Counted from the stretch's first letter, positions 24,036 to 41,538 are shown. The stretch is DNA of 64,000 bases from an uncultured Nitrospiraceae bacterium (GCA_963846575.1 CAWJWJ010000002.1:1088001-1152000), one strand, 5' to 3'. Notes: generated by a model not told the origin, from the letters alone. Program-made: numbers and translations.

Positions 24036-24176
24036 GCCAGAAGAGCGCCAGTCTCAGTCGGAGGCTCGTTGATCACCAGGCGCATGACTCACGGTAGGCC
24101 TATGCAGACCTATGGCGTCGGGCTGATTCATGACCTTGAACTTATACAATGACCCATTGCCCCATCGGAGGAGACG

Positions 24177-24644: not shown

Positions 24645-24710
24645 CCTTCGGCCTCTCGCATCGACTGCAGATTGCTGAAAGTGGAGCCCGGCGCAGGGAA
24701 GCGGGGACAC

Positions 24711-25928
24711 GTGGACCAGGAGCATAAGGGCCGGCGGCTCCCGCCCCCCAGCCGGCGAACCTTTTTGCTGGGCGCGGCGGGAGCTGTGCCTCTTTTGTAC
24801 CATGGGCTCGGGAAGACCTTGTTCGCGGCCGCTTCGGAGCCGGGCGAAAGGCCAACCCAGGAGGCCTCCCCGTCCGGCATGATCAGCAGACAGCGAAACC
24901 CGGACAATCTAGAATTTCCCTTCTCCACGCTGAACAGCTTCTTCACGCCCAACGAGCAGTTTTATGTGCGCACGCACTTCGAAGTGCCTCAGCTCAGCAC
25001 CCAAGACTGGACGCTCAGTATCGAAGGCGCGGTATCCACTCCGCTGCAGATCAGCTACGACGAACTTCGAGCGATGCCGTCCGTCACGATGCCGGCGTTG
25101 CTGGAATGTTCCGGCAACAGTCGGGTGTTCCTGAAACCTCCCCAGACCAGCATCCGGTGGGAGTTGGGCGGGGTGAGCAACGCCGAATGGACCGGTGTGC
25201 GGCTGTCCGATCTCTTGGCGCGTGCCGGCGTGAACAACCAGGCGGTGGAAGTCATCATGGAGGGAGCCGATTCCGGAGAGTTCCAGGATCCGAATCCGCC
25301 CACCCCCGGCGTCATTCCTTATGCCCGCAGCCTGTCACTTGAGAAAGCCCTACGGCCCGAGGTGATCCTGGCCTACCGCATGAACGGCAAGGACCTCCCG
25401 CCGTCGCACGGATTTCCTGTGCGCGCGGTCGTCGCGGGGTGGTACGGCATGGCCTCGGTCAAATGGCTGAGGCGCATCATCCTGACGGATCGACCGTTCG
25501 ACGGGTACTTTCAGACGTTTGTCTATTCGGTATGGGAGCGCCGGCACGGGCTTCCGACGCTAGTTCCCGTCTCCGAGATGCAGGTCAAGGCGGAAATTGC
25601 CCGCCCCATGCTTCATGAAGTGATTCCCGCCGGCTCACACTATCGAGTCGTGGGCGCGGCCTGGTCCGGTGAGACCGATGTGAACAGGGTCGAACTCAGC
25701 ACCGACGGAGGGAGGGCATGGCAGCCAGCACGGTTGCTCGATCGCCCTGTGCCGTTCGCCTGGCGTTTGTGGGAATATGACTGGGACACTCCGTCACAAG
25801 CCGGTCACCACACCCTGATGGCGCGGGCCACCGATTCCCGAGGACGCACCCAGCCGATGACAAGGGACCACGACCGGCGGGACGCCCTGGTGACGCACGT
25901 GCTGCCGGTTGCGGTAGAGGTTCGTTGA
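24711..25928 (+). CDS. Sulfite oxidase-family molybdopterin oxidoreductase, Tat-exported
   Basis: SRRTFLL twin-arginine motif, FYVRTH, LECSGN, WTGVRL, HGFPVR, GWYGMASVKWL, RATD..G..QP. Confidence 0.9.
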   Translation: MDQEHKGRRLPPPSRRTFLLGAAGAVPLLYHGLGKTLFAAASEPGERPTQEASPSGMISRQRNPDNLEFPFSTLNSFFTPNEQFYVRTHFEVPQLSTQDWTLSIEGAVSTPLQISYDELRAMPSVTMPALLECSGNSRVFLKPPQTSIRWELGGVSNAEWTGVRLSDLLARAGVNNQAVEVIMEGADSGEFQDPNPPTPGVIPYARSLSLEKALRPEVILAYRMNGKDLPPSHGFPVRAVVAGWYGMASVKWLRRIILTDRPFDGYFQTFVYSVWERRHGLPTLVPVSEMQVKAEIARPMLHEVIPAGSHYRVVGAAWSGETDVNRVELSTDGGRAWQPARLLDRPVPFAWRLWEYDWDTPSQAGHHTLMARATDSRGRTQPMTRDHDRRDALVTHVLPVAVEVR

Positions 25929-25964
25929 GCGCCCTCCTGTACTCCGCCATCCCGAAGTAGCTCC

Positions 25965-26204
25965 TTACTTCATACCCTGGCACCTCATCTTGGCTTGTGA
26001 ATAGGCGGCTTGCTGCTCTTTCTCGGTTCCGCCGTTCGCCTTCACTTTGTCCGCTGCTGCCGTGGCCATTCGTTGACAGTCCGCGCCGGTGGGCGCTTTC
26101 GTCGGAGGCGGAGTGTTTTGTGCGGCATAGCCCGGTGCGAAGGCACCGGCCGTCATCATGGCAGCGCTGAGGAGTCCGGCCAAAGTCAGCTTCGTGATGG
26201 GCAT
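25965..26204 (-). CDS. Small secreted protein with two Cys
   Basis: GGAGG SD, Sec signal MPITKLTLAGLLSAAMMTAGAFAPGYA; mature part about 50 aa. Confidence 0.7.
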   Translation of the reverse strand: MPITKLTLAGLLSAAMMTAGAFAPGYAAQNTPPPTKAPTGADCQRMATAAADKVKANGGTEKEQQAAYSQAKMRCQGMK

Positions 26205-26574
26205 ATGGTCCTCCGGGTTATAGGTAAGGGATCTGTGGAACATCGGAACCGGCACATGCACGTAGGTCGCCGGCACATGAGGAGAGGATCAGGCGTACAC
26301 CCGGTGAGCAGGGCGCGGTCGAGCCTGGAGCGCGGGCAACAGGAAGGGACGCGGCACTCGCGGCGATAGAGAACCGGCGGATGCCGGAACAGCCGATCAA
26401 TTGATGCGCTCTCGAATCGGATCGTTGATGGGAAGGCTGACGGTGGATCGGGCGTAAGGGGGCAGACAGAGTCGCGAGCGGTCCGCTGAGTAGCGGGTGG
26501 AAAACAGCGCAACGCATGCCTCCGACCGGTTTAACGCGAAGCTGGAAGGAAACTGTAGCCGGTAAAGCGGGGAG

Positions 26575-26603
26575 ATTCTGGCAAGGTGAGCCAATCTTGT
26601 CAA
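26575..26603 (-). promoter_or_regulatory. Sigma70-type promoter, copy 1 of duplicated unit
   Basis: Minus strand TTGACA-17 bp-CAGAAT. Confidence 0.65.
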
Positions 26604-27077
26604 GGAAACCAACCTGCCATGACGCTGACCACGCTCCTGATACTGCCGCTTAGGCGAGGGTGCTCCACTGGTCGCACCCTCAGTTCCGACCGGTGGATTC
26701 TGAACGGGTTCGTGCGTCACCGGTGGATAAAGGCCGGTACGATGGCCGCGATAACGCCGGACACTTAGCCGGCTGCGATTCGTCTTGCTTCATGACGGCA
26801 GCGGCGAGATCGGGCTGCTGCTGCTCACGCCGGGCGCGGCACGTATGTCCAGAGTCAGATGGCCGTCCGGTCAGAAGTGCTCAGGGAGGATGGTGGCCCG
26901 GTCGTCTTCAGGGTCGCGGAACGGTAGAGGTCGAACCGCGCTGCTCTCAGGAACCAATGTGGAATTTGACTCGGCCACTGCCTCCGGACAGAGCCGGCGT
27001 GAGGGCGGGAGCGTGAGGGCGGGTGGGACTTCAGGTCATCGCCTGCTCATCTCGGCCCAGGCATGTCGGGGTTACGG

Positions 27078-27136
27078 ATGTTCGATTGCAAGACCTGACC
27101 CCACTCTCCTTGACCCTCGATCCCTCTCCTTGACCC
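27078..27136 (+). repeat. TGCAAGACCTGACCCC motif copy 1, with downstream duplication
   Basis: ATGTTCGATTGCAAGACCTGACCCC at 27078-27102, then CTCTCCTTGACCC twice. Confidence 0.9.
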
Positions 27137-27165
27137 CCATCTCCCTCGCAATCTTCTCGAATGCT

Positions 27166-27790
27166 TTAGGATCGTGGCACCACGATGAAGCCCTCGCCGG
27201 CCTCACCGTAGGTCCTGACTTTTCCCGCCAGCAGCGGTTGGGCGGCGGGCGCAGAGGGCGGCGTCCACCAGGTCGATGGTTCTGAGCGAGTCCAAAGAAT
27301 ACCCGGCCTCGCGAAGAAGGGCAGGCCGGTCGATACGTTTCTGCGCGGCGGAAAGGGTGCTCTTGGCCAGGACGCAGGCCACGGCGTGGGGAAACGTCTC
27401 AAAACAGACTGGCCCTGCCGGTGGGGCGTGACCGGCGAAGAGCTGATAGTCCGGCGAGGGCAGCCGGAATAATGCGGCCCCGTTGAGCATCCAACTAGAG
27501 AAGGGATGACGTTGTCCAACCGTCAGGCTCGGCGTGGCAAAGGTGGTGATGCCGGCGGCGGCCAACGCGCACTCGCAGGGTCTTGCCCGACCGGTCCGGC
27601 TCCAGCAACAGGGGGCGTCGATGCCGACCGCCGCCGCAGCGACGTGTCTGCACCAGGCGGCGGCTTTCCCCGGATCGAGCGTGGCGCAGGTGGCGACGAT
27701 GCGTCTTTCCTGGAGCGCGACGGCGTGAAAACCCTTCTTCGGTCCGCCGACGTCGATGCCGGCCACGACAGGGAGGAAAGAGTTGTCCAT
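27166..27790 (-). pseudogene. DUF429 (RNase H-like fold) protein, frameshifted near the C-terminus
   Basis: GIDVGG, GIDAP, ETFPHA, VDAALCA in one frame; the tail LLAGKVRTYGEAGEGFIVVP is in another frame (shift near 27248). Confidence 0.7.
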
Positions 27791-27882
27791 GGCCGGCTAT
27801 TCTAAAGTGATGCGGAGCACCTTCCAAGGCCGGACGCCTCACCGACAGTCTCGGATCGCCATACAACCCTCTGCCGGGCACA

Positions 27883-28251
27883 TCACCTTGGCTTGGGAGG
27901 CGGGGGTGGCGTCGGCGTTGGGGTCGGCGTGGGCGACGGCGTCGGTTGAGGTTTTTTGCATCCTGACACACAGGCACAATCTCCGGTGTTCATGGTGCCG
28001 TTCGCGTTACTGTTACAAGTCCACAGACTGCCGTCCGGGGCCGTACAGGTCCAGTGGCCGGCGCTCCTGTAGCAGTTTGTGCCTTGTGGCAATCGACCGG
28101 GCGGAGTGACCTTGGTTTTGGGCGGGTCCATTTTCGCCATGGCACTATCGAACGCTGTGCCATGGGCCGATATCAGCCCCATCGTGAAGGAGAAGACCAG
28201 CACATAGCCGAACCCCCGGAAGATTTTATGCCTGCCGATCAGTGAACCCAT
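27883..28251 (-). CDS. Secreted Cys-rich miniprotein with Pro/Thr tail
   Basis: GAGGAGG SD, hydrophobic signal, six Cys, PTPSPTPTPTPTPPPPPKPR tail. Confidence 0.72.
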   Translation of the reverse strand: MGSLIGRHKIFRGFGYVLVFSFTMGLISAHGTAFDSAMAKMDPPKTKVTPPGRLPQGTNCYRSAGHWTCTAPDGSLWTCNSNANGTMNTGDCACVSGCKKPQPTPSPTPTPTPTPPPPPKPR

Positions 28252-28684
28252 CGCCTCCTCCTTTGGCTGTGTAACAGTTGAGTGTTCGTCGCCACGACCC
28301 TGTTCGAGCAAGGTTGCATGTCCACCTGCGGGTCCGGATCTACTCAACAATGCTCAACTATGGAACCAAACAACTGGCTGTATGTCGTAAGCACGGGGGA
28401 ACACGTTCAATCGACGCAGCCCGACTCGATACGGGAGCGTGGCAATGGATTGGAGGCTGACTACATGGTCGGCGAGAGCATTCCAGCCGATCGCGGGCGC
28501 CCGGTTCAAGCGAAAGTCTCTCGAAGTGGATCGTCAACCGTGAAGCACGAGGCGGAATGGAGCGACGGGAGAATCCTCTATAGCCAGAAGTGTGCGGATC
28601 AGCGGATGGAAGACAGCGCAACGCATGCCTCCGACCGTCGCAACGTACCGTGGAAAAGCAAGCTGGTGGCCGCAGAGTCCCGGG

Positions 28685-28713
28685 ATTCTGTCAAGGCGAA
28701 CGATACTTGTCAA
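28685..28713 (-). promoter_or_regulatory. Sigma70-type promoter, copy 2 of duplicated unit
   Basis: Minus strand TTGACA-17 bp-CAGAAT. Confidence 0.65.
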
Positions 28714-28748
28714 GGCGATGTGCCGAGACGTCATTGCTTGAGGCACCC

Positions 28749-28793
28749 TGTTCGTTTGCAAGACCTGACCCCAATCTCATGACCCCAATCTCA
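28749..28793 (+). repeat. TGCAAGACCTGACCCC motif copy 2, with 14-bp tandem duplication
   Basis: TGTTCGTTTGCAAGACCTGACCCC; TGACCCCAATCTCA at 28766-28779 and 28780-28793. Confidence 0.9.
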
Positions 28794-29023
28794 AAGTTGT
28801 GATCCAAAACAATGAACGTGCACAGGCCACGGCTCCGGGCAACTTGTTTGCACGATATTCGTCCTCATAAAACTCTGGGTGCGTTGGTTTTGGATCGGAC
28901 GTATGATGAAGGTCAGGTGGGAGGGCGGTCGAGAGGATGTGGTACCAGACCGGCCGCTCTGTGCCTGCCCTGAGAAACCGTACCGCCCGCAAGCTGGCGG
29001 CCTGAATGTGTCCGGAGGTGAAG

Positions 29024-30409
29024 ATGCATGAGTCCCAAGCTGATGCCCTGGTGTTGTTCGGTGCGACCGGTGACCTGGCGTACAAAAAGATCTTCCCGGC
29101 GCTCCAGGGGATGATCAAACGCGATGAACTGAACATGCCGGTGATCGGGGTGGCCAGACCCAACCGGTCGCTGGAAGAGATGCGGGTGCGGATCCGCGAA
29201 AGCCTGGAGCAGTTCGGCGGGGGGGTCGATGACGCGGCCTATGCCAAGCTCGTCCGGCTTTTCCGGTTGGTGGGCGGGGACTATGGGGATCCCGACACGT
29301 TTGTGCGGCTTCGTCGGGAGCTCGGCAAGGCGGAACGTCCCCTCCATTATCTGGCGATCCCGCCCAGCCTGTTTGCCTCCGTGGTCGAAAGCCTGGGCAC
29401 ATCGGGGAGCGCGCAGGGCGCGCGCGTGGTGGTCGAGAAGCCTTTCGGCAGGGACCTGGCCTCCGCCCAGGCCCTCAACCGGACCCTCTACACGCTGTTC
29501 GACGAATCGGCCATTTTCCGGATCGATCACTACCTGGGCAAGGAGTCGATTCAGAATCTGCTGTATTTCCGGTTTGCCAATTCTTTTCTCGAACCGATCT
29601 GGAATCGAAATTACATCGACCACGTGCAGATCACGATGGCGGAGCGGTTCGGGGTCGACGGCCGGGGGAACTTTTACGAGGAGACGGGGGCCCTGCGCGA
29701 CGTGGTCCAGAACCACCTCCTGCAGGTGGTGGCGAATCTCGCGATGGAGCCGCCCCTCAATGACGAGGGCGAGGCATTGCGGGATGAGCGGGTCAAGGTC
29801 TTCAAGCGCATGCGGCCCCTGACGGGAAAGAGCCTGGTGCGTGGTCAGTTTCGAGGGTATCGCGATGAGGCCGGCGTGGCCCCCGACTCACAGGTCGAAA
29901 CCTTCGCCTCCCTGCAGGTGCATCTCGATTCCTGGCGGTGGGGCGGCGTGCCCTTTTTGATCCGGGCCGGCAAACAGCTCCCGGTCACTGCGACGGAGGT
30001 CGTCGTGAAACTCAAGCGTCCGCCGCAGAACGTGTTCGGCGAAGCGTCGAAGGGCCCCCGCAACTATGTGCGCTTCCGGCTGGGTCCGGATCAGGTGGCG
30101 GTCGCCATCGGCGCGCGCGCGAAGGCGCCGGGAGACAAGATGGTGGGAGACGAGACCGAGTTGTTCGTCTGCCGCCAGGGTGGAGACGAAATGGGCGCGT
30201 ATGACCGGCTGATCAGCGATGCGCTGGCGGGCGACCCGTCCTTGTTCGCACGGCAGGACGGCGTCGAAGCCAGTTGGCGGGTGGTGGATCCCGTGCTCAC
30301 GATGCACACGCCGGTTTACGAATACGAGCCGGGTACCTGGGGGCCGAAGGAATCCCAAACGCTGATCGCGCCGTTCGGCGGATGGGCTAATCCGAAGGAA
30401 CAGGAATGA
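29024..30409 (+). CDS. zwf: Glucose-6-phosphate 1-dehydrogenase
   Basis: [40 protein letters not shown]. Confidence 0.97.
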
Positions 30410-32346
30410 CTCAGCCTGGCAGCGAGCGATCCTATCGGCCGATCCGCGACTATGCACTGATCGGCGATTGTCATGGCGCCGCCCTGGTCGCAGGGGACGG
30501 CGGGATCGATTGGTGTTGTCTCGGCCGGTTCGACGCGGACCCGGCCTTGTGCCGCCTGCTGGATTCGAACGAGGGTGGCTTTCTCTCGACGGCCCCCGCA
30601 GACGAGCACAGGAGTACGCGGGCCTATCTGGACGGGACCAATATCCTCCGGACGACCTTCGCGACCGGCCGGGGCACCGTCGTGCTGACCGACTTCATGC
30701 CCGTGGGTCGAAGGCCCGGCAGTGGACCCCATAATTACGTCGACCTGGCGGCACCGAAATGTGTCGTGCGGATCGTGGAAGTCACGGAAGGGTCGGTCGA
30801 GGTCGAGATCCAGTACCGGCCGACTCTGGCCTTCGGACGGACGAAGGCCCGGTTGCAGGCTGAAGGGAGCCTGATTTCCGCCGAAGGCGGACCGGCCCTG
30901 TATCACGACGTCGCCGGATTTACGCTCGAAGGTGACAGGGCGGCGGCAACCATCCGTTTACGGCAGGGGGAACGGCGGGTCCTGATCCTTGCGGAGAAGC
31001 CCTGGACGAAGGTGAACCCGCTGGCGCTGGTGGACATGTACGCGTCGGTGACGACGGCCTTCTGGCGCGAATGGATCGCCTATTGTCGATACAGCGGGCC
31101 CTATGAACAGGCGGTCAAACGCAGCCTCCTCGCGATCAAACTTTTGATCTATGCCCCCTCCGGGGCCATCGTCGCGGCCCCGACGGCGTCCCTCCCCGAG
31201 GAACTCGGCGGCAGCCGCAACTGGGATTACCGTTTTTGCTGGCTTCGCGACAGCGCGTTCGCGCTCTATTCACTCGCGGTCACCGGGTACGGCGGCGAGG
31301 CCCGGCGGTTCAGCCAGTACCTTCCGCGCGTCTGTGCGGAAACCGCGCCCAAGGTGCAGATCATGTATGGCCTGGAAGGCGAAACCAAACTCGACGAGGA
31401 GGTCCTCGATCATCTAGACGGGTATGGCGGCAGCCGGCCGGTGCGGAAGGGCAACGAAGCCTACAGTCAACGACAAATCGACGTGTACGGAGAGATTCTC
31501 GACTGGGCGCTGTTGTTCCACAAGCTTGGCGGCACCTTCAATCAGGAGGTGCGGGCGTGGCTCGGCGGGTTGGCCGATTTTGTGGCGGATCACTGGCATG
31601 AGCCGGGCCAGGGGCTGTGGGAAATGCGGGGTCCGCCCTTGCAACACCTTCACGGCAAGGTGATGAGCTGGGTGGCGCTCGACCGGGCGATTCGCCTGCT
31701 CGGTCACAAGGCGCGCTGGGATGAGGAGCGTGAGAGGATCGTGGCCCAGGTCCATGCCCGCGGGTTGTCAGGCCCGGACGGCCACCTGGTTCAGGCCTAC
31801 GATCGCCCGGAGGTCGACGCCGCCTTGTTGCTGATTCCGCTCACAGCGTTTCCGGTGGATGACCACATCCTGACCAGGACGATCGAGGCGATCGAATGCG
31901 ATCTGCGGGCCGGCAACTTCCTGCATCGGTACAAGAAACAAGACGGGCTGGAAGGCAAAGAAGGCGCGTTCCTGATCTGCAGCTTCTGGCTGGTCGATGC
32001 GCTGCTCCACGTCGGCCGGTCAGAAGAAGCCGCCGGACTGCTCGGTCGTCTGGTGGCCTGCGCCAACGATGTCGGTCTGTACGCCGAGGAGATCGATACG
32101 GAGACCGGGGCCTTTCTGGGCAATTTTCCGCAGACCTACACGCAACTGGCGTTGATCGGCAGTGCGGTGCACCTCGCCCTGTGCCAAAAGGGGGGCACGG
32201 AGGCGCTCAAGGCCACCCATGCCGAACGCGCCCATCGCATCGTCTCGGCCACACTCGGCTGGCGCGCGATCGTGGCCGCGTTCACGACGACCTGGCGCGT
32301 CGGCCGTGTGTTCTCGTCAAAACGCTCGCTACTGAGACTGGAGTAA
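30406..32346 (+). CDS. Glycoside hydrolase family 15 (glucoamylase/trehalase-like)
   Basis: [60 protein letters not shown]; overlaps the zwf stop. Confidence 0.93.
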
Positions 32347-32405
32347 AGGGAAACTTACTTCCCAGCGCATGTGCACCAGTCACCTGCCGCCATGTCTTGG
32401 GCGGC

Positions 32406-32467
32406 ATGTTCGATTGCAAGTCCTGACCCCATTCTGAGTGCGCAAGTCCTGACCCCATTCTGAGTGC
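32406..32467 (+). repeat. TGCAAGTCCTGACCCC motif copy 3, with 26-bp tandem duplication
   Basis: ATGTTCGATTGCAAGTCCTGACCCC; GCAAGTCCTGACCCCATTCTGAGTGC at 32416-32441 and 32442-32467. Confidence 0.92.
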
Positions 32468-32689
32468 GAGTGGGTTCGTCTTGAAACGGCTGACGATCCG
32501 TTCCTCAAGGAATAGTGAACCAAAGACCGCATCGATCAGGTTTTGAAAGATCGAAGGATCTGGGGCTGTATCAGCGCGTCGCAATCGGGCATAATGAAAG
32601 TCAGTTTTTTTGCCCGCAACTTCGCAGGATGCTGTCGATGGTTGAGGTAAGCGGCACGTGGAATCACTTGACGTTAAATTCGAGGAATC

Positions 32690-33289
32690 ATGAGATTACA
32701 CGCATCACGTTATGGATGGAGCGATGCATTGGCTTGTGGCCTGGTCCTCTGGCTGGTCACAGGCTGCGGGCCCTACATCCGCGCGGAAGGGACGCATCAG
32801 CGCATTCCCCCGCCCGACACGCTTGTGGCGGTCTGGGGCGACAATCCGACCGTAGTGAAGACCGCGTCCATGTGGCTCAAAATGCGGGGATTGGCCGTGG
32901 TCGACCCGGCGCAGGTACAGGCCGAGGTGCAGGATGTCAGCAAGGCGGCCGTGCACCTGCCGAGCGAGACAGACCTGCTGGGCATCGCCGACCGTCTCGG
33001 CATCGAACAACTCATCCTGGTAGGCATGGCCGGAGACCTGAGGGCGCCCTCGATTTTTGTCCGGGGGCTGGAGGTCAAATCTAGGCGTATCCAATGGATC
33101 GGGAGCGCCCGGTATGAGGACTACGTCTCCACGCCCGTCTCGAATCACGTGATCATCGCAACCTGTCGGGCGCTTTCCGCCGCCTGGGGCAACCCGGACC
33201 CGGGCAAGGAAACCTATTGTGCTCCGGCGGATGACGTGGCACGGCAGAAGAATCCGCCTGAGCCCGCGGGCAGAAGGACGCTCCCATGA
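32690..33289 (+). CDS. Putative lipoprotein
   Basis: GAGG SD, lipobox LVTGC; alpha/beta body. Confidence 0.7.
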   Translation: MRLHASRYGWSDALACGLVLWLVTGCGPYIRAEGTHQRIPPPDTLVAVWGDNPTVVKTASMWLKMRGLAVVDPAQVQAEVQDVSKAAVHLPSETDLLGIADRLGIEQLILVGMAGDLRAPSIFVRGLEVKSRRIQWIGSARYEDYVSTPVSNHVIIATCRALSAAWGNPDPGKETYCAPADDVARQKNPPEPAGRRTLP

Positions 33290-33891
33290 GGCAGGGGCTA
33301 TGGCAACCTCCAGGGTGGACGCTCACCGGAATCCTGCTGGCGACAGGGCTGCTGGCCGCAGGCTGCAGCACGATGCAGGATCGCACCAATACTCCCCGGA
33401 CGTCGGGCGAACAATTGCTCCTGGCGCAAGCCATTGAACGGGGCCTGTCTGACCTGAGTCTGCCCCTCTCCACCAATACAGCCGTGGCGGTCAAGTCGTT
33501 CGGATTTACCGACGATAAGGAAGTCGCACACCGGCAGATCGAGAGCTGGTTCCTCGCTCAAGGCTATCCTGTCGTCGAAGACGATAAGGCCGCCATTAAC
33601 GTCCGGGTCCTGATCCAGGCTCTGGGGACCGAACGCAGCGAGACGTTTTTCGGGGTGCCGGCCATCTCCAGTCTCTTGATCCCGCTTGCCTTGCCCGAAC
33701 TGGTCGTGTACCGGGCCGCCAGGCAACAGGGAGTGGCACGGTACCAACTGGAGCTGACGGACGCGAAGACGGGCGCGCTTCTCCATCGCTCGCGTCTCTG
33801 TGAAGGCACGGCCTTCCTGAATCAATTCACCGTCTTGTTCTTGTTTACCTTCCAGCGGACCGACCTCCTCCCCCCGCCTCCGTTTTCATAA
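33286..33891 (+). CDS. Putative lipoprotein
   Basis: Lipobox LAAGC, PRTSGEQLLLAQAIER motif; ATGA overlap with the previous gene. Confidence 0.75.
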   Translation: MRQGLWQPPGWTLTGILLATGLLAAGCSTMQDRTNTPRTSGEQLLLAQAIERGLSDLSLPLSTNTAVAVKSFGFTDDKEVAHRQIESWFLAQGYPVVEDDKAAINVRVLIQALGTERSETFFGVPAISSLLIPLALPELVVYRAARQQGVARYQLELTDAKTGALLHRSRLCEGTAFLNQFTVLFLFTFQRTDLLPPPPFS

Positions 33892-34015
33892 TGAGGGGGT
33901 TGTCACTGGCCCGCCTTCTCTCTCACTACTTTCGAATCGGCCGTCCGGGCTGCCTTGTGGAGGGTCCTCGCCCGGGAGGAGATGCGTCCCCCTTGTCTAT
34001 CGACACCTGAGGACC

Positions 34016-34057
34016 ATCATCTTGCGAGTGGGAGGCGATCCCTCTCGCGCAGGTGAT
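34016..34057. terminator. Hairpin between convergent genes
   Basis: ATCATCTTGCGAGTGGGA-GGCGA-TCCCTCTCGCGCAGGTGAT, an imperfect stem. Confidence 0.4.
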
Positions 34058-34102
34058 CTTCTTCGCGGCAAAGGATCTTTGATGTGTTGTACCGTTCACA
34101 TT

Positions 34103-35503
34103 TCACGCCGCCGCTTTCTTCAGATCCTCGACCAGCAGGTCGAACAACCGGGCCTGCGACGAGGGATCCCGTGCGCGGAGAATGCTGGACGGGTGGTAGG
34201 TTAGCAAAATGCGTGACGAAAACGGGCTGCTGAAAAACCGCCCGTGCTGCCGCTCGATCGAAACCTGCCCGCCGATCAGCGATTGCGCGGCGGTGCGGCC
34301 CAGACAGACGACGATTTCCGGCCGTACCGCCTTCAACTCCGCTTCGAGCCAGGGCCGGCAGGCGATGACGTTCGATGGGCGCGGAGCTTGATGCCGCCGC
34401 AGGCGGCCATCCAGCACGAACCGGAAGTGTTTGACGGCATTCGTCACGTAGAGCTGCGAACGGTCGAGAGCCGCCCTGTCCAACGCCTGGTCCAAGACCT
34501 CACCCGCCGGGCCGACGAATGGCGCACCGGCCAGATCCTCCTGATCTCCCGGCTGTTCCCCGACGAGCATGACGCGCGCGGTGGTCGGGCCGCGCCCGAA
34601 GACTGTCTGGGTGGCGGCAAGGTGCAGCTCGCAGCCCGTGCAGGTGGCCGCGGCCTGGGCCAGATCCGGCAGCGAGGTCGCCATCGGCAGGGCGGCCATA
34701 CGCTGACGGCTGTCCATGACCTGTCCCACGCTGGCCCGCACCCCCTGGGTCAAGGGTGTGATCAGACGAGATTCCGGCAGCCCCTTCCAGAACCGTCCTG
34801 GGAGCTGCGCCTGCATCGCCGTTGGATTGATGCGAGCGGGATTGAACGTCGCCGCGTAATAGGCGCGCCAGACCAATTCCAGCGTATCGTCCGTCGGGGC
34901 CTCCCTCTGCATGACCCCGGGGCCGAACCGCAAGGTCTCACCGTCCCAATGGCTCGAGGCGTCCGGAGTCAGGATGGACCAGCGCAGGGCGGCAAACCGC
35001 TCCACAAAAAACGGCGCGGCGAGTGGCAGGACGGGATGATCCGGCTGGTGCCAGGCGACGTACTGTGCCCCCGCCCCATCGGTGATCTGTCGAAAACGCA
35101 CGAAGGCCTTCATGTGATAGACATCCCGCTGAACCTGCCGTTGCATCTTCAGCAGACGGGAGACCTCCCGGTCCACTTCGACGGCCAGCAAGCGGGGTTC
35201 GGTCGAAGTGAGCCGCCACAGGACCGAATAGAGCAGAGGCCACTTCGAGGCATCGCGATGGTACGCGACGATCTTCAGCATGCTGCGGAAATCTTTGGGA
35301 ATGCGGGGGGCAGGGATCGAACGGCCCGCCGGGAGTTCCCTCGGGGCGCTGCTCTGGAAGTCGGCGAAGAGGCCGGGCAAGGTTGGTTGTGCCGCGGTGG
35401 TCTCCGTCCAGAGCATCTCGGATGGGGGACGCCGCTGGGCCAACTGTTCGAGCGCCGCCGTCAGCCACCCGTCGGGCGTGGGAGTGAAGCAGACGTCACG
35501 CAA
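34103..35503 (-). CDS. DUF4130 - UdgX-type uracil-DNA glycosylase fusion
   Basis: N-terminal HMKAFVRF, RWSILTP, WRAYYAATFNPAR, FWKGLPE; C-terminal CTGCEL, VGEQPGDQED, TNAVKHF, ACRPWL, TYHPSS. Confidence 0.92.
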   Translation of the reverse strand: MRDVCFTPTPDGWLTAALEQLAQRRPPSEMLWTETTAAQPTLPGLFADFQSSAPRELPAGRSIPAPRIPKDFRSMLKIVAYHRDASKWPLLYSVLWRLTSTEPRLLAVEVDREVSRLLKMQRQVQRDVYHMKAFVRFRQITDGAGAQYVAWHQPDHPVLPLAAPFFVERFAALRWSILTPDASSHWDGETLRFGPGVMQREAPTDDTLELVWRAYYAATFNPARINPTAMQAQLPGRFWKGLPESRLITPLTQGVRASVGQVMDSRQRMAALPMATSLPDLAQAAATCTGCELHLAATQTVFGRGPTTARVMLVGEQPGDQEDLAGAPFVGPAGEVLDQALDRAALDRSQLYVTNAVKHFRFVLDGRLRRHQAPRPSNVIACRPWLEAELKAVRPEIVVCLGRTAAQSLIGGQVSIERQHGRFFSSPFSSRILLTYHPSSILRARDPSSQARLFDLLVEDLKKAAA

Positions 35504-35505
35504 GG

Positions 35506-36756
35506 TCAGAGTTGCCCAAAGGTCGCCTCGAGCGAGGCGGAGAACAATTCCAACTGCGCCGGTTTGCTGAGCAGCTCCGGTAGATCGTCCCGGTCTAACC
35601 GCAACAGACGCTCCGAATAGGCCGGCGTGACGATGAACGGCCGTACCCGTCGGAGGGGCACGTGCAGGGTGCGCAGATCATCCAGCGTCACCCGGTGATA
35701 CCGCCGGATGGAAAGGATTCTGGCGACGTTCTTGTATCCCAGTCCCGGTACCCGCAGGAGCTCTTCGCGCGGCGCGCGGTTCACATCCACGGGGAAACGC
35801 TCTCGATGGCGCAGGGCCCAGGCGAGTTTCGGGTCGAGATCGAGCGACAGGTTGGGATCGTCGGCAGTGGTGAGTTCCTCCATGGAGAAACCATAAAAAC
35901 GGGTCAGCCAGTCGGCCTGGTAGAGGCGATGCTCCCGCACCAGTGGCGGCGCCTGCAGCGGCAGGCGGGGATCGGCGTTGGGGTAGGGGCTGAAGGCCGA
36001 GTAGTAGACGCGCTTGAGTCCGTAACGCTGATACAGGTGCGCCGCCGAAGCAAGAATCACCGCATCCGTGCTGGGCGTGGCCCCGATCACCATCTGGGTC
36101 GATTGACCGGCGGGCGCGAAGGAAGGCGCGGAACGCCGATGCGATCGCTCCGTGCGTGCCGCCTGCACCCCTTGCTGAATCTGCCCCATCGTGCCTTCGA
36201 TCACCATCATGTGCTTATCGGGTGCGAGGTGCACCAGATCGGCCTGCGTCGGCAGTTCGATGTTGGCGCTCAGGCGATCCACCCAGCGCCCGGCGTCTAC
36301 GATCAACCGCTGGGACGCGCCCGGTATGGCTTTGAGATGAATGTACCCGCCGAACCGATGGGTCTGCCGCAACGTCCGCACCACGGCTACGAGCTGCTCC
36401 ATGGTGTCGTCCGGCGAGCGAAAGATGCCGGAGCTCAAGAACAGCCCTTCGATGTAATTCCGTCGGTAGAAATCGAGCGTGAGGTCCACCACCTCCTGCG
36501 GGGTAAACGCTGCCCGCGGAATGTCGCTTGAGACCCGGTTGACGCAGAACACACAATCGTAGACGCAATGGTTCGTGAGCAGGATTTTCAGGAGCGAGAC
36601 GCAACGGCCGTCGGGCGTGAAACTATGGCAGATGCTATGGCCATCGGTATGGCCCAGACCGTCCTTGGAGCCGGCCCGGCGGGAGCCGCCGCTGGCGCAA
36701 GACACATCATATTTGGCGGCCTCGGCGAGGATCTTCAGCTTTGTGGTGAGCGACAT
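35506..36756 (-). CDS. Putative DNA modification/repair radical SAM protein (TIGR03916 type)
   Basis: AAKYDVSCAS, CHSFTPDGRCVSLLKIL, CVYDCVFC, YIHLK, REHRLYQADWL.RFYGF, HhH LLRVPGLG. Confidence 0.95.
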   Translation of the reverse strand: MSLTTKLKILAEAAKYDVSCASGGSRRAGSKDGLGHTDGHSICHSFTPDGRCVSLLKILLTNHCVYDCVFCVNRVSSDIPRAAFTPQEVVDLTLDFYRRNYIEGLFLSSGIFRSPDDTMEQLVAVVRTLRQTHRFGGYIHLKAIPGASQRLIVDAGRWVDRLSANIELPTQADLVHLAPDKHMMVIEGTMGQIQQGVQAARTERSHRRSAPSFAPAGQSTQMVIGATPSTDAVILASAAHLYQRYGLKRVYYSAFSPYPNADPRLPLQAPPLVREHRLYQADWLTRFYGFSMEELTTADDPNLSLDLDPKLAWALRHRERFPVDVNRAPREELLRVPGLGYKNVARILSIRRYHRVTLDDLRTLHVPLRRVRPFIVTPAYSERLLRLDRDDLPELLSKPAQLELFSASLEATFGQL

Positions 36757-36941
36757 CGGTCATTATACCCGATGGGCTGGAGTCCAGGGGAGTCCTGGAG
36801 CCTCGCCGCCTGTGGGGTCAGCTTTTTCCGTCGTCACCTTTTATTGTGTTAGCCTGTGGGACGAGGGAGCGATTCTACTAGAGGCTCGCCACCCGGCCCG
36901 GGCCGGTGTCCTGCCGACGAGAGGGAGGGAAATCAGGAAAC

Positions 36942-37628
36942 ATGCTGCGTGTCGTTCTGATCGTGATCATTGTCGGTCTGGTCGTGTTCGGTCCGCAACT
37001 CTGGACCAGGCGGGTCTTTGCCAGGCATAGTGCGCCCCGTCCCGACTACCCGGGCACCGGAGGGGAACTGGCCCGGCACCTGCTGAATCGGCTCAACATG
37101 TCACACATCAAGGTCGAACCGACCGAGAAGGGAGACCACTACGATCCCGTCACCAAAGCGGTCCGCCTGACGCCGGACATCTTCGATGGAAAGTCCCTGA
37201 CGGCCATCACGGTGGCCGCCCACGAAGTCGGGCATGCCATCCAAGATCACGAAGGCTACCAGCCGCTCGCAGAACGGACGAAGCTCGTGAAGGTCGCGCA
37301 GGGAGCGGAGAAGGTGGGGGTGTTTTTGATGATGGGGATTCCGATCGCCGCGTCTCTGGCCAGGACCCCTGCGGCGGGCCTCCTGGTCATGGTGGCCGGG
37401 ATGGCGACGATGGGGATCGCGACGCTGGTCCACCTCTTCACGCTGCCGGTCGAGTGGGACGCCAGCTTCAGGCGCGCCCTTCCAGTCCTCCGGCACGGCA
37501 ACTATCTGTCTCCTGAAGACGAGCAGGGGGCCCGCAGTATCCTCACCGCAGCCGCGCTGACCTACGTGGCCGCCTCCCTCGCGAGCCTGCTCAACCTGTG
37601 GCGCTGGCTTGCCCTGCTACGGCGCTAG
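36942..37628 (+). CDS. Neutral zinc metallopeptidase (YugP-like)
   Basis: DHYDP, AAHEVGHAIQ, TLPVEWDAS.RA, AAALTYVAA. Confidence 0.92.
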   Translation: MLRVVLIVIIVGLVVFGPQLWTRRVFARHSAPRPDYPGTGGELARHLLNRLNMSHIKVEPTEKGDHYDPVTKAVRLTPDIFDGKSLTAITVAAHEVGHAIQDHEGYQPLAERTKLVKVAQGAEKVGVFLMMGIPIAASLARTPAAGLLVMVAGMATMGIATLVHLFTLPVEWDASFRRALPVLRHGNYLSPEDEQGARSILTAAALTYVAASLASLLNLWRWLALLRR

Positions 37629-37808
37629 GCCCTTCACTCACTTTTGCACATGATCGCGCCTGGTGATACTGCGAGCCTGCGGATGGCTTCACAGCGCGTG
37701 TCTAGCGTGCGAGGATCGCCGTATTTGGGACGACAGGTGTCGGCTGCAACATCCAGGGTGATGGTGGCAGCATCAGTGCTCAGAGGCCAATGGGCAAGAG
37801 GAGGACGC

Positions 37809-38156
37809 ATGGAGATGGTTGGAATCTTCGCTGTGGCCTGCGTGACCGACATGGAACGCAGCGTCGCATGGTATGCGCGGTTGATGGGGCCGGCCCCGGA
37901 CGACCGTCCCATGGAGGGGCTTGTCCAGTGGCGGAGCGCCAGCGGCGCAGGACTGCAACTGGTGCTGGAGGTCGAGAAGTCGGGCAGCAGTCTGATCACG
38001 ATCGTGACACGGGAGATGGATCTCGTTCGAGCCCAACTTGCCGCCGCAACACTCCAGCTGGAGCCCAATATTCAGGGCGATTTCGGGATTATTGCCCAGA
38101 TCAGCGATCCCGATGGCAACCGCGTAACTCTCGCTGAGCCGCCACAGGGCATGTAA
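37809..38156 (+). CDS. VOC/glyoxalase family protein
   Basis: VTDMERSVAWY.RL.G and DPDGN motifs; GAGGA SD. Confidence 0.85.
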   Translation: MEMVGIFAVACVTDMERSVAWYARLMGPAPDDRPMEGLVQWRSASGAGLQLVLEVEKSGSSLITIVTREMDLVRAQLAAATLQLEPNIQGDFGIIAQISDPDGNRVTLAEPPQGM

Positions 38157-38311
38157 TCCGACGCGGTGGAGACCTCACGACGGCAACTCCCTCAGGCGGC
38201 GCCGTGAAGGTAGCTTGCCACGATCGGCGGCTGATTAGGAGTCTTAGGCCATGTTGAGGGGGAGAAGGCCCGATCATGGTAGTGACGGGGCTTCATCACG
38301 GCCGATAAAAC

Positions 38312-38349
38312 ATGTTGGATTGCAAGACCTGACCCCATCTTGCATCTTG
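38312..38349 (+). repeat. TGCAAGACCTGACCCC motif copy 4, with 7-bp tandem duplication
   Basis: ATGTTGGATTGCAAGACCTGACCCC; CATCTTG at 38336-38342 and 38343-38349. Confidence 0.9.
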
Positions 38350-38425
38350 GGACAGCTAAATCGGGATCCGCGAAGCCCCGGCACGGCTACGACGCCGTGA
38401 CGGAGCCTCAGCAATTCGAAGACGC

Positions 38426-38944
38426 TCAGTGGCTTTCCTTGTGTTTGCCTTCATGCAAATCGATGACGGTCCCCGCCTCGTTCAGTTCCACCGTCACTTC
38501 CGCACCCTCAGCCAAACCCTTGGTTTTGGTCTCTTGCAGCAAAAGCGGAAACGTTTGCTCCCCTTCCGCCGTCTGTAGCTTGATCTCCTTCTTCATCAAT
38601 CCAACATGCACGAGCTTTCCTGTGACATGCTTGTGCTTCCCCTTTTCCCCCGCATGATGGACGTCAATCAATGTGTTGTTCTCATTGACGGTGAAATCCA
38701 CCTTGTCACCGATCTTGAACTCACGCCCTTGCCGATGCGCCTCTTTTTCGCTTAAAGAATAGGTAGACCCGGTTTCATCCTTAATGGCCAGACTGCCCGC
38801 CTTCTCGACCACTTCCCCCTTGTAATGTCGATGCGTTCCCTTACCCTTATCGTCCGCAACGGCCAATCCCGCCGTACCCAAGGCCACCGCACTGCAGATG
38901 ACCGCCGCAATCACGACTCCTGAAATCCCCTTGGTACTTGTCAT
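38426..38944 (-). CDS. Secreted His-rich protein with two tandem OB-fold-like repeats
   Basis: AGGAGG SD, signal peptide, repeats ending GDKVDFTVNENNTLIDVH and GAEVTVELNEAGTVIDLH. Confidence 0.8.
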   Translation of the reverse strand: MTSTKGISGVVIAAVICSAVALGTAGLAVADDKGKGTHRHYKGEVVEKAGSLAIKDETGSTYSLSEKEAHRQGREFKIGDKVDFTVNENNTLIDVHHAGEKGKHKHVTGKLVHVGLMKKEIKLQTAEGEQTFPLLLQETKTKGLAEGAEVTVELNEAGTVIDLHEGKHKESH

Positions 38945-39373
38945 TTGATCCCTCCTGAATTGAATGAATGAAACCCATCTTCGCCATGGTAATGATCTTG
39001 CCGAAGAGAATCACCCTTTTTCTCTCGGGCCATATGCTATGAGCCGGGACAGCCGGCGGAGGCACACATGCGAGGCAGATGGGGGAAAGGTCTTAACTTG
39101 AATGGTCTCTGGAACGAGTAGGATCCTTACCTTGCATTTAAGGCGCAAACTACAGAGTTCGACCTGCCCCCGAGTCTGCAGGCTGCCTCATGGGGTCTGT
39201 CTGGTGGACGAGGGAGCGATACGTGTGGGATGCCACATCGAACGTGATGGTGCAAGCATCAGCCGACCTGGCCAGCCGGTCACGCATCCCGCTACGCCCG
39301 CTGCTGAGAATGGCGTAAAGAGCGGCCCTGGCATGCGCATCCTGGTCGGGTGTCTGCCGTCCTGATTCAGTCG

Positions 39374-39408
39374 GTGCTAGATTGCAAGACCTGACCCCAT
39401 CCTTGACC
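39374..39408 (+). repeat. TGCAAGACCTGACCCC motif copy 5
   Basis: GTGCTAGATTGCAAGACCTGACCCCAT, followed by CCTTGACC. Confidence 0.88.
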
Positions 39409-39573
39409 TGCAGTATCAAGTTGTATACCGGCGGCGCGGCTGGTGGCACACCGCCTGGCCCTAGGCAATATCCTGGAAAAAAATTGGCAGCCCCGGCCTG
39501 CTCGTCGCCATTGCCGCACCCTGAGTAGTACACTCCTCTCTGTAACCGTCCCCCAACCTGTGAGACCCACTCG

Positions 39574-40578
39574 ATGCTCGTGACGCCGGAAGTGAACAGC
39601 CGGAACAGGAAGCAGGCTCTGGCTGCCGCTGCCCTGGTGGCCCTGGCGGTGTCGATCTGGGGCTGGATCGCCACCCCCATGTTCCTCTTGCTGGTCTTAA
39701 GTCCGTTAACCTATTGGTGGCTGCGGCAGCGCAGCCTGCGGCGTCTGGAGGTCATGACGCAGCCCTTTCCCGCCGAGTGGGAGCCGATCCTCCGCGGCCA
39801 GGTGGCCTTCTTCGCGGCGCTCGATGAGGCAGGCCAGGCACGGTTCCGGCAGATGATGCAGATCTTTCTCGACGAGGTGCGGATCACGGGTATTCGCACG
39901 GAGATCGACGAGACGGTGTTGGTGCTGGTGGCGGCGAGCGCGGTGATCCCCATCTTCGGTTTCAGCGATTGGGAATACCATCGGTTGCGCGAGGTGCTGA
40001 TCTATCCCGACGCGTTCGACGATGCGTACCAGACGGCCGAGGGCCCGGACCCGGCCATGCTGGGAATGGTCGGGCTGCACCATTTGAGCGGGGTGATGAT
40101 CCTCTCCAAACCCGCCCTGCTGGAAGGGTTCGCGCGTCCCTCAGGCAAGCAGAACGTGGGGGTCCATGAGTTCGCGCACCTGGTCGAGCGGGAGGCGAGC
40201 GAGTACGGGCTGCCTCCCGAAGTGCCCTGGCGGGCGGTCCGGCAGTGGGTGCGGTACGTGGCCCGCGAATTGGAAGGTCCACCGGGGCATCATGACCACG
40301 TGAACCCCTATGCCTACACGAACTCCCACGAATTCTTCGCGGTGCTGGCCGAATATTTCTTCACGTCGCCGGATCTTTTGAAACGGCGGGATCCCGCCCT
40401 CTACGCCATGCTCCGTCAGATGTTTCACCAGGACCCGCACGCGTTGCTCCCGCCGGTACCGAGGCGCCGCCGGGGCGTCGGCCGCAATGCCCGCTGTCCC
40501 TGCGGGAGCGGCAGGAGATACAAGCACTGTTGTCTCGCGAAGGCGGATCGGCCTCACGCTGAAGAGAAGCGCGTCTGA
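39574..40578 (+). CDS. MtfA/M90-family zinc peptidase with C-terminal SEC-C motif
   Basis: VLIYPDAF, NVGVHEFAH, YAYTNSHEFFAV.AEYFF, GRNARCPCGSGRRYKHCC. Confidence 0.92.
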   Translation: MLVTPEVNSRNRKQALAAAALVALAVSIWGWIATPMFLLLVLSPLTYWWLRQRSLRRLEVMTQPFPAEWEPILRGQVAFFAALDEAGQARFRQMMQIFLDEVRITGIRTEIDETVLVLVAASAVIPIFGFSDWEYHRLREVLIYPDAFDDAYQTAEGPDPAMLGMVGLHHLSGVMILSKPALLEGFARPSGKQNVGVHEFAHLVEREASEYGLPPEVPWRAVRQWVRYVARELEGPPGHHDHVNPYAYTNSHEFFAVLAEYFFTSPDLLKRRDPALYAMLRQMFHQDPHALLPPVPRRRRGVGRNARCPCGSGRRYKHCCLAKADRPHAEEKRV

Positions 40579-40662
40579 CCTACGGTCCGTCGGACCGGAA
40601 GCGTGGGTTGCGGTGAGAGTGACGGGCGGCCGGAGAACAGGCCGCAGACCTCATGCCTCGAC

Positions 40663-41424
40663 TCACTGTCTGGCGCGAATCTGGAGAAAATCCTGATGGA
40701 CCGACAGGCGGTAGGCTTGCTGGTCCGTCGCGAAGTGTTTGGCGACGTAGGCTTCCAGGTCGCGCCGGGCGGGGGGCCGGCTGATCGGCAGGAGATTCAG
40801 CATGAATTCCGCCACGGTGTAGGCATCGGACTGCTCGCTGGTGTCCACATGGGCCTGGTCGAGGGTGATGTCTACGTCATAGCGGTTCCCATGTTTGGCA
40901 CGGAAGGCGTCGGCCAGGCCGGCCAGGTCGAACCGGTGGCCGAAGAAATGCTCCAGCATCGTCATGCAGGCGGTCCCGCGGTTCTGGAGGATCACGACGG
41001 TCACCCCGTCGGGCGACATCCAGGAGACCAGCCGCTCCAGGTGCGCAAGCCACTCCGCCGCCGGAATGTAGTAGAGGGTGTGGGAGCAGAGCACGAAATC
41101 GCCGGGAGCGGCCGGGCTGGCGTCGAGAATCGACCTGCCGATGGCGTCGGCAAGAGGAATCGCCTGTCTGAGCCGGTTGAGCAGATGGGGGTTGGGCTCG
41201 ATGGCGATCGTGCGGTCGAAGGTCGGGGCGAAGGCGCTGGTGACTTCCCCCGTGCCGGCACCGGCGTCGATGAAGACCTTTTTTGCGGGCAGATCGTCCA
41301 CGACCCGCTGCAAGAACCGCTTCGCGTTGCGCTTCTGATCCGTGTGGTCCAGGAACACCTGGAAGGCGCGTTTGTAATCTTCGCCCTGCGAGTCGAACAC
41401 CCGAATGAGATCCGGTTGCGTCAT
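40663..41424 (-). CDS. Class I SAM-dependent methyltransferase
   Basis: FIDAGAGTG, AIEPN, DFVLCSHTLYYIP. Confidence 0.88.
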   Translation of the reverse strand: MTQPDLIRVFDSQGEDYKRAFQVFLDHTDQKRNAKRFLQRVVDDLPAKKVFIDAGAGTGEVTSAFAPTFDRTIAIEPNPHLLNRLRQAIPLADAIGRSILDASPAAPGDFVLCSHTLYYIPAAEWLAHLERLVSWMSPDGVTVVILQNRGTACMTMLEHFFGHRFDLAGLADAFRAKHGNRYDVDITLDQAHVDTSEQSDAYTVAEFMLNLLPISRPPARRDLEAYVAKHFATDQQAYRLSVHQDFLQIRARQ

Positions 41425-41538
41425 GGGCCGTTCCTTCCGTCGGTGTAGGGTTGGTCCGGGTCGCGGCGGCGTCGCAGCATACGTCTTTTTTCGCGGGAAG
41501 GCGAGGAGGAGTATGCTGCGAACGGCGCTCGCCAGTTG

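Follow-up and report, generated by a model that had tools for sequence, protein, structure and literature searches.

Five co-oriented repeats in an accessory region of a Nitrospiraceae genome as probable solo ends of a TIRtron located elsewhere on the chromosome

Introduction

What is the nature of short, co-oriented repeats that separate unrelated genes in a region in which no recombinase is encoded? This question is raised by a stretch of 64,000 nucleotides (nt) from an uncultured Nitrospiraceae bacterium (hereafter the window, C2:1088001-1152000 of the source genome G000, which has 4.20 Mb in two contigs), where five copies of a 25-nt sequence lie between gene modules of differing content. 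The first-pass annotation of this DNA had proposed that a trans-acting recombinase uses the sequence for repeated gene acquisition or deletion, giving an integron-like array. Our analysis leads to a different answer: the sites are very probably solo terminal inverted repeats (TIRs) of 25-26 bp that belong to a TIRtron, whose transposase (TIRYT) gene lies 721 kb away, and it is such element ends, not cassettes, that would have remodelled the neighbourhood.

The name TIRtron was given by Di Nocera 2013 (PMC3733652) to RAYT-like genes with long terminal inverted repeats, and the enzymes were called TIRYTs; many TIRtron repeats share the motif GGGGWSAS, and moderately abundant families occur as singles, dimers and clusters. 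According to Quentin 2018 (PMC6006769), most TIRYTs belong to TnpA-Y1 subclass 2.1 and have C-terminal helix-turn-helix (HTH) or DnaA-like domains and no REP hairpins.

Results

The five copies in the window

At up to three mismatches, the 25-mer ATGTTCGATTGCAAGACCTGACCCC has five matches in the window, all on the + strand (Table 1), where 100 dinucleotide shuffles of the same DNA gave a mean of 0.00. With this expectation of zero, and with the genome-wide clustering described below, a chance origin of the copies is ruled out. The five co-oriented copies had been recognised correctly in the first pass, except that the second begins at 28748 and not at 28749, and the statement that the window holds no others was also borne out, since the only further match, in a 16-mer search of the window, was the partial duplicate at 32441-32456. 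This is the second unit of the tandem duplication that had already been noticed at copy 3, and which consists of the outer 14 nt of the TIR and 12 nt of flank. As previously described, every copy falls between open reading frames (ORFs) taken as genes; the 25-mer of copy 3 begins 60 nt past the stop codon of the GH15 glucoamylase gene, and only the stretch before this copy overlaps the end of that gene. Degenerate repeats of GACCC plus 10-15 nt are found 3' of copy 1 up to about position 27137, and the relative G048 has a degenerate copy at the position matching copy 5. An Rfam scan of 26000-40500 placed no family on the repeat and returned two irrelevant matches with E>0.7. About 115 nt ahead of copy 2 (28601-28715) are 72% identical to 26492-26605, roughly 470 nt ahead of copy 1.

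A Y1 transposase gene is bracketed by the repeat

The repeat also occurs at a distance of 721 kb on the same chromosome, as an inverted pair that is 100% identical over 26 nt (about C2:1848600-1848626 on the - strand and 1849478-1849504 on the + strand) and brackets an ORF of 278 amino acids (aa) at C2:1848650-1849486. It matches Pfam Y1_Tnp with E 4e-14 and 53.2 bits (cut-off 23), and no other Y1_Tnp match exists in G000. An H-Y-H triplet is located at residues 60-62 and a tyrosine at residue 119 within CRYVVLNP, and we take H60, H62 and Y119 to be the catalytic residues. Close homologues are named 'REP element-mobilizing transposase RayT' or 'transposase' in database records. The ORF ends in ...EEEHV*, with the last codons GAA CAT GTG TGA, and the TGA lies inside the repeat, the outer end of which reads GGGGTCAG. 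The interval that separates an amine-oxidase gene from an rluB-like gene is the orthologous site of the element, which is missing there in all five relatives compared.

The resemblance of the motif to the 3' end of Y1/HUH REP-associated-type transposase genes, which had been suggested in the first pass, is therefore substantiated by inverted copies that bracket the single Y1 gene of the genome and by the stop codon within one of them. The expectation of a gene ending in CKT* did not hold, as the ending found is in a different frame. Likewise, the peptides read from the window copies (MFDCKT*, LFVCKT*, MFDCKS*, MLDCKT* and VLDCKT*) are correct as translations, but the transposase gene does not use their frame. 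Read outwards, the repeat gives GTG ATT GCA AGA CCT GAC CCC (MIARPDP). At the right end of the TIRtron (C2:1849479-1849540), this frame passes through an in-frame 15-nt tandem repeat, or stutter, into the ORF of the rluB-like pseudouridine synthase, the N-terminal region of which is different and longer in G048 and G003.

Distribution in the genome and across phyla

The 19-nt core of the repeat, at up to two mismatches, occurs 13 times in G000, with all copies on C2 and in four places (Table 1), whereas 100,000 random placements of 13 points never gave fewer than eight clusters. A search of G000 with an nhmmer profile found nothing beyond these 13 copies and the partial duplicate. At the scale of the genome, the copies are strongly clustered and locally co-oriented, and an even spread with random orientation is not seen. 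Apart from the two copies around the transposase gene there are 11 solo copies, none of which has an inverted partner, and tblastn and blastn searches beside the window copies detected no decayed transposase gene. One solo copy (C2:2041612-2041666) retains about 30 nt resembling the final TIRYT codons; it sits in a stretch of about 980 nt that is missing from G003.

Table 1. Coordinates of the repeat copies, associated units and gene modules (window positions, unless given for C2)
Feature	Position	Strand	Remark
TIR copy 1	27078-27102	+	ATGTTCGATTGCAAGACCTGACCCC; 0 mismatches; nhmmer E 7e-8
TIR copy 2	28748-28772	+	2 mismatches
Tandem stutter at copy 2	28766-28793	+	TGACCCCAATCTCA x2
TIR copy 3	32406-32430	+	1 mismatch
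26-nt tandem duplication at copy 3	32417-32442 + 32443-32468	+
TIR copy 4	38312-38336	+	1 mismatch
TIR copy 5	39374-39398	+	GTGCTAGATTGCAAGACCTGACCCC; 3 mismatches
X150 unit ahead of copy 3	32264-32405	+	about 140 nt; local alignment
X150 5' piece, third unit	37727-37776	+	after Zn-peptidase gene; first ~50 nt only
X150 unit ahead of copy 5	39212-39373	+
Module between copies 1 and 2	27203-28109		DUF429 gene 27203-27790 (-); small ORF 27756-28109 (+)
Module between copies 2 and 3	29006-32346	+	glucose-6-phosphate dehydrogenase 29006-30409; GH15 glucoamylase 30406-32346
Module between copies 3 and 4, left	32690-33289, 33286-33891		two ORFs without Pfam family
Module between copies 3 and 4, middle	34103-35503, 35506-36756	-	DUF4130+UDG; radical SAM protein
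Module between copies 3 and 4, right	36906-37628, 37644-38156		Zn_peptidase_2; 'VOC' ORF
Module between copies 4 and 5	38426-39365		His-rich OB-type ORF 38426-38944 (-); 87-aa ORF 39102-39365 (+)
CDP-alcohol phosphatidyltransferase gene	41539-42318	-	right-hand core neighbour of the array
TIR copy, place 1	C2:873658
TIR copies, place 2			the five window copies
TIR copies, place 3	C2:1848601(-), 1849485, 1856570, 1861820, 1866855
TIR copies, place 4	C2:2041612(-), 2044139(-)

An 18-mer of the repeat, at up to one mismatch, is present in 146 copies in 30 of the 39 genomes of the genus that were searched and in three of five genomes of one neighbouring family; none of 11 genomes from two other families of the order has it. 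At least 10 other genomes of the genus carry a TIRYT gene between inverted copies about 882 bp apart. The exact 18-mer, with R at one position, was found in at least 138 stretches of a collection of species representatives, and the matches listed include records of Nitrospirota, Acidobacteriota, Rokubacteria, Gemmatimonadaceae and Beta-, Gamma- and Deltaproteobacteria, and further of Planctomycetota, Elusimicrobia, Actinobacteria, Paenibacillus and others. The 18-mer is letter-identical across records labelled with more than 10 phyla. In the listed cross-phylum loci, a TIRYT-like coding sequence occurs within the flanks of 35 of 138, and 46 of 157 copies have an inverted partner within 90 nt. 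The 15-mer core of the repeat gave no match in literature text; this search did not reach the figure of TIR sequences in Di Nocera 2013, so that the sequence may have been displayed before.

Conservation of this kind could also mean that the 25-mer is kept as a protein-binding site, a terminator or an outward start signal of the host, and that the transposase gene merely lies between two such sites. The copies do follow genes or precede the next one by 175-260 nt, and the outward MIARPDP frame enters the rluB-like ORF at the right end of the TIRtron. However, a host function is difficult to reconcile with just 13 copies in four places of a 4.2-Mb genome and with copies that are absent or decayed in 16 of the 39 genus genomes; the position relative to genes is inconsistent, and neither a hairpin nor an Rfam family goes with the repeat. 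We therefore regard this explanation as most improbable.

Intact repeats accompany an intact gene

For a comparison across the genus, a TIRYT was called near-full-length if it was uninterrupted and had at least 64% identity over at least 250 residues, and repeats were counted per genome as 18-mers with up to one mismatch. The 13 genomes with a near-full-length TIRYT have 99 copies (median 8), while the 16 that lack a TIRYT match at E<=1e-10 have 21 (median 1); a further 10 genomes with partial, broken or distant matches have 26. These counts are uncorrected for kinship, which inflates any test. G003 and G048, both without a TIRYT gene, have decayed copies at orthologous sites, one with 5 mismatches in 25, another with 3 mismatches and a third with an indel. 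Intact repeats thus track the intact transposase gene across the genus, and together with the perfect inverted pair around the gene and the same unit in relatives this ties the repeat family to the TIRYT.

The window array and the old home of the element

In several relatives, the TIRtron is found next to the gene that flanks the window array on its right. In G020, G045 and G041 it lies about 2.5 kb from the CDP-alcohol phosphatidyltransferase homologue, which corresponds to window positions 41539-42209 and ahead of which, at 20-40 nt, a TIR is located, and in G015 the TIRtron abuts this homologue. On its other side, the relatives have homologues of genes from the second cluster of G000 (a MazG-like gene and a 176-aa ORF). 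The solo copies that flank TIRtrons mostly point away from the element (19 concordant, 4 discordant, many of them orthologous and hence not independent), and the five + strand copies of the window, left of the CDP-alcohol phosphatidyltransferase gene, fit the side that faces the start of this gene. Because the TIRtron is beside the array-flanking gene in four Nitrospira-type species, the array looks like the old home locus of the element, of which it is likely a remnant, the element itself now being 721 kb away. In G001 and G018, decayed second TIRtrons are present beside intact ones.

The copies have the properties of element ends

Copies 3 and 5 each form the end of a longer unit of about 150-190 nt, which we call X150, and so does the interrupted unit that precedes copy 4. 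The X150 ahead of copy 3 aligns with the pre-TIR stretches of G048 and G023 at z 25-27 and with the stretch before copy 5 at z 7.1, and the third unit, of which the window has a 5' piece, runs uninterrupted into the TIR in G048 and G023. Copies 3 and 5 have related inner flanks; X150 shows no relation to the inner flanks of copies 1, 2 and 4, and the inner flank of copy 1 is unrelated to those of all other copies. The 87-aa ORF ahead of copy 5 ends within an X150 unit. The X150 ahead of copy 3 extends over the final ~60 nt of the GH15 gene, where it encodes an atypical C-terminal tail, such that the 3' end of this gene appears to have been replaced by repeat-derived sequence. The tail of the window GH15 (32200-32346) comprises about 50 residues that are missing from its paralogues.

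A related situation is found in G018, where at least 10 copies of a gene-less, 370-bp element with the same inverted repeat at its ends lie within 38 kb (C6:322001-360000). These copies are 70-88% identical to each other and lie 2-5 kb apart with unrelated genes between them; the 370-bp interior has no homology with the window X150. Wherever copies within a genome share flanking similarity, it is on the inner side (in G018, 43 inner-similar and no outer-similar pairs), which is expected of element ends.

Just outside the tip of the repeat, a tandem repeat of GACCC(C) plus 6-30 nt, and sometimes of the whole repeat, is frequently seen. This stutter, exemplified by window copies 2 and 3 and by the right end of the TIRtron, is found at 34 of 155 copies from many phyla (22%), as compared to 1 of 135 control GACCC sites, and such tip-specificity argues for recurrent events at the tip. 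Folding of the 13 copies in G000 revealed no shared hairpin in or beside the repeat, and in 103 copies from other genomes the inner and outer flanks did not differ in structure (p 0.30). With no consistent fold in either set, a REP hairpin structure is ruled out for the TIR.

Gene-content breakpoints at the repeats

Four blocks of the window (28878-32432, 36824-37631/59, 38312-39130 and 39515/25-40546) are 86-92% identical to G003/G048, intergenic DNA included, while the flanking core genes are 74-82% identical. In G003, the GH15 gene is followed by X150, a decayed copy 3 and then directly by the upstream region of the peptidase gene: the block of at least 89% identity ends at 32432, and about 32467-36811 (4.36 kb) is absent, starting right after copy 3, with the other end at about 36808-36824 unrelated to the repeat. 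In G048 and G023, the peptidase gene is followed by an X150 unit and the TIR, which in G048 runs straight into the OB module. Relative to G048, the window has about 535 nt, the region of the 'VOC' ORF, inserted between the X150 start (37727-37776) and the inner edge of copy 4, and the 92% block that is common with G048 starts exactly at 38312, that is, at copy 4. In the third cluster of G000, the blocks 37 nt before and inside one copy (L003 10139) lie 4.4 kb apart in G003, and a block of 90% identity in the second cluster begins 13 nt past a copy (L002 3820).

Three or four copies are thus placed exactly at gene-content breakpoints. The earlier suggestion that synteny breakpoints fall at the motif was right for copies 3, 4 and L003 10139, but it does not amount to a general excess: blocks of at least 84% identity have 34 ends in all, 5 of which are no more than 40 nt from a repeat. 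This is far more than the 0.6 or so expected over the whole sequence, but does not exceed the roughly 4 expected if only intergenic DNA is considered. In each resolved indel, only one end is at a repeat. Taken together, the sites likely mark spots at which DNA was gained or lost.

These junctions bear on the possibility that the 25-mer is a site of conservative site-specific recombination in an integron-like cassette array, with modules that move as circles carrying one site each. Co-oriented sites with gene-sized spacers would be expected from such an array, and several species do have polar arrays beside the transposase gene; the module content varies by species, the modules are more similar to G003/G048 than the core genes are, and some breakpoints fall exactly at a site. 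On the other hand, no comparison with relatives showed a site-cargo-site arrangement in one genome and a single site in the other, and the resolved indels have their second end elsewhere, for instance at 36808-36824. Furthermore, the repeat, at up to three mismatches, was found in none of 26 metagenome loci with relatives of the OB protein, and in the closest of these (83-91% aa identity) the homology stops 38 nt before copy 4 is reached. No integrase is encoded among the window ORFs scanned, and an attC-like fold is missing, the inner flanks being as unstructured as the outer ones. The enzyme associated with the repeat is an HUH/Y1 nuclease, and this class is known for cutting and joining single strands, not for conservative recombination between duplex sites (Nunvar 2010, PMC2817692). 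The integron-like array proposed in the first-pass annotation was thus not borne out, and we consider a cassette array very unlikely. A metagenome search for closer strains with a 26-mer spanning X150 and copy 3 gave no exact match; four soil-metagenome runs with small shares of the region yielded short contigs over 24001-42000 only, in which no repeat had a joint or loose end and which are uninformative either way on circles or deletions.

Gene modules between the copies

The Pfam scan, which covered 45 ORFs of the window, confirmed the module contents as they had been described (DUF429, glucose-6-phosphate dehydrogenase, GH15, DUF4130+UDG, radical SAM and Zn_peptidase_2) and, in agreement with the first description, found no transposase or integrase family among these ORFs. 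The modules differ in their distribution. The one between copies 1 and 2 has no DNA match among the 39 genus genomes; that between copies 2 and 3 matches G003 at 89% identity, as against 75-77% for the flanking core genes; and of the module between copies 3 and 4, differing parts are present or absent in G003, G048, G023 and G052.

Several further observations concern these genes. G000 has three GH15 glucoamylase paralogues with 38-39% aa identity to each other, one in the window (30406-32346) and two elsewhere (C2:1861896-1863842 and C2:2044195-2046150). A TIR copy is located 30-60 nt past the 3' end of each, such that a GH15 gene is present at three of the four TIR loci. The DUF4130+UDG and radical SAM pair (34103-36756) has 78-83% DNA identity to counterparts in at least six other genus genomes; it directly adjoins the left core neighbour of the window array (about 24177-24653) in G023 and G052, and is missing from this locus in G003 and G048. 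Farther to the left, window positions 554-9925 hold an ORF for a 3123-aa non-ribosomal peptide synthetase, with three AMP-binding, two condensation, three carrier domains and one thioesterase domain, which is followed by an ABC exporter gene.

Discussion

The element described here is a new example of the TIRtron class, and its analogy to an integron is at best an architectural resemblance. With TIRtrons (PMC3733652, PMC6006769) it shares a RAYT-like HUH/Y1 gene between long terminal inverted repeats without REP hairpins, an outer motif GGGGWSAS (here GGGGTCAG), a repeat that overlaps the 3' end of the gene and the dispersal of this repeat in the genome, in this case in 11 further copies. As far as the accessible text of these papers goes, four features go beyond the descriptions of TIRtrons: the solo ends are co-oriented, face away from the element and have gene-sized spacers between them; their tip may be repeated in tandem as a stutter; intact gene and intact repeat go together across a genus; and an 18-mer is identical in many phyla.

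As with REPtrons (Nunvar 2010, PMC2817692; Bertels & Rainey 2011; Bertels 2017, PMC5581495), a single-copy, domesticated-looking Y1 transposase has a dispersed short repeat on either side, in inverted orientation; copies of the repeat cluster around the gene, and the enzyme is presumed to act on them in trans. However, the TIR is neither a palindrome nor headed by GTAG, its 13 copies contrast with the hundreds in which REPs occur, and REPs are lineage-specific, whereas the TIR is common to several phyla. REPINs in turn are inverted doublets, while none of the 11 solo copies in G000 is paired, against 46 of 157 copies elsewhere. Classical REPs are short palindromes, most often headed by GTAG or CGTC. 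A classical REP or REPIN is therefore ruled out by the lack of a palindrome or hairpin, of a GTAG head and, in G000, of inverted doublets.

Elements of the IS200/IS605 family have ends with subterminal hairpins and without inverted repeats, and their insertion is strand-specific relative to replication. The TIRtron resembles members of this family (IS608, ISDra2) in that it belongs to the same Pfam Y1_Tnp superfamily and is a one-gene element of about 900 bp, but its ends are a perfect 26-bp inverted pair without a hairpin signal. With 9 copies on the leading and 4 on the lagging strand there is also no replication-strand bias, and on these three grounds IS200/IS605 is ruled out. Integrons and CALINs likewise have arrays of short co-oriented sites that separate promoter-poor gene modules, and the arrays of related genomes are polar relative to the enzyme gene. 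Yet an IntI-type tyrosine recombinase, an attI and an attC fold are all missing here, modules occur elsewhere without a site of their own and two-site indels are not seen; a true integron or CALIN is ruled out by the absence of an integrase in the 45 ORFs, of a site fold and of the site in all 26 loci of OB relatives.

How might a TIRtron then produce such an array? The TIRYT may bind the repeat in trans, probably through its C-terminal HTH, and may nick and rejoin a single strand at the TGACCCC tip or close to it. Repeated rounds of cleavage, priming and rejoining, or slippage at the tip, could give rise to the short stutter copies and occasionally to a duplication of the whole repeat. Over time, DNA beside the nicked ends would be lost or gained through adjacent deletions, one-sided captures and illegitimate joins anchored by homology, and what is left after this remodelling would be solo ends in one orientation, facing away from the element and separated by unrelated genes. 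The repeats would accordingly be ends of the element, or of its derivatives of about 190 nt, and not delimiters of self-contained cassettes.

A number of points weigh against this scheme. The 278-aa ORF reaches 75.2 bits with NCBIfam REP_Tyr_transpos, just below the cut-off of 80. The matches of HTH_38, HTH_30 and HTH_23 to residues 244-275 (E 7e-5 to 9e-4) all stay under the Pfam gathering scores, and the C-terminal HTH of subclass 2.1 (PMC6006769) thus has a weak, sub-threshold match here. A phmmer search of the ORF against PDB sequences gave no matches that would have allowed its catalytic residues to be aligned to those of a solved RAYT. Single-strand transposition of the IS608 type predicts a replication-strand bias, and the distribution of the 13 copies is not a convincing one. 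Five of the 11 solo copies are inside G000-specific DNA without a resolvable junction, and with only two or three distant relatives for comparison, the indels cannot be polarised into insertions or deletions. Most of the agreement in orientation around TIRtrons goes back to a single ancestral arrangement that the genomes have in common. Finally, the accessible text of neither Di Nocera 2013 (PMC3733652) nor Quentin 2018 (PMC6006769) reports a TIRYT activity. The trans-acting enzyme postulated in the first pass has found a plausible candidate in the Y1/HUH gene 721 kb away, but its role in gene gain or loss, like the cleavage at the tip and the origin of the stutter, is something that we infer.

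Some of these points would equally suit passive relics, that is, dead ends of old insertions of the TIRtron or its mini-elements in tolerant DNA that have no part in the differences in gene content. The solo copies in lineage-specific DNA and the block ends that do not exceed the intergenic expectation are compatible with such relics, as are the piece of TIRYT 3' end at the C2:2041612 copy, the decayed second TIRtrons in G001 and G018 and the diverged 370-bp mini-elements of G018. However, copies are near-perfect in genomes with the gene and decayed in those without it, which argues for continued interaction with the enzyme. The stutter is specific to the tip, and three junctions are exact to a few bases of the copy edge. 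Purely passive relics are hence possible, but in our view rather unlikely, and we prefer the explanation that the window sites are solo TIRs whose ends took part in remodelling.

A bolder version of this explanation would be that the TIR tips are hot spots made by the enzyme, where nicking, stutter and DNA capture or loss let a polar array grow outwards and modules be exchanged between species. This we hold to be unlikely; if true, it would be a counterpart of the integron platform that is based on a single-strand nuclease and uses a repeat conserved across bacterial phyla.

TIRtrons received their name in 2013 and their classification in 2018, and to our knowledge no function or mechanism has been shown for them. 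The locus presented here is a clean natural example, with one intact gene, eleven solo ends and relatives with and without the gene, and the decay of ends in the absence of the gene together with the cross-phylum stutter of the tip leads to predictions about the cut site and about how neighbourhoods are reshaped. If the ends do not promote such changes, the repeats are plain debris of the element, and what looks like 'modules' is simply an accessory hot spot in which this debris lies. If they do promote local gene gain or loss, the genomes of nitrifying bacteria, and those of many other phyla, would have a new route to plasticity.

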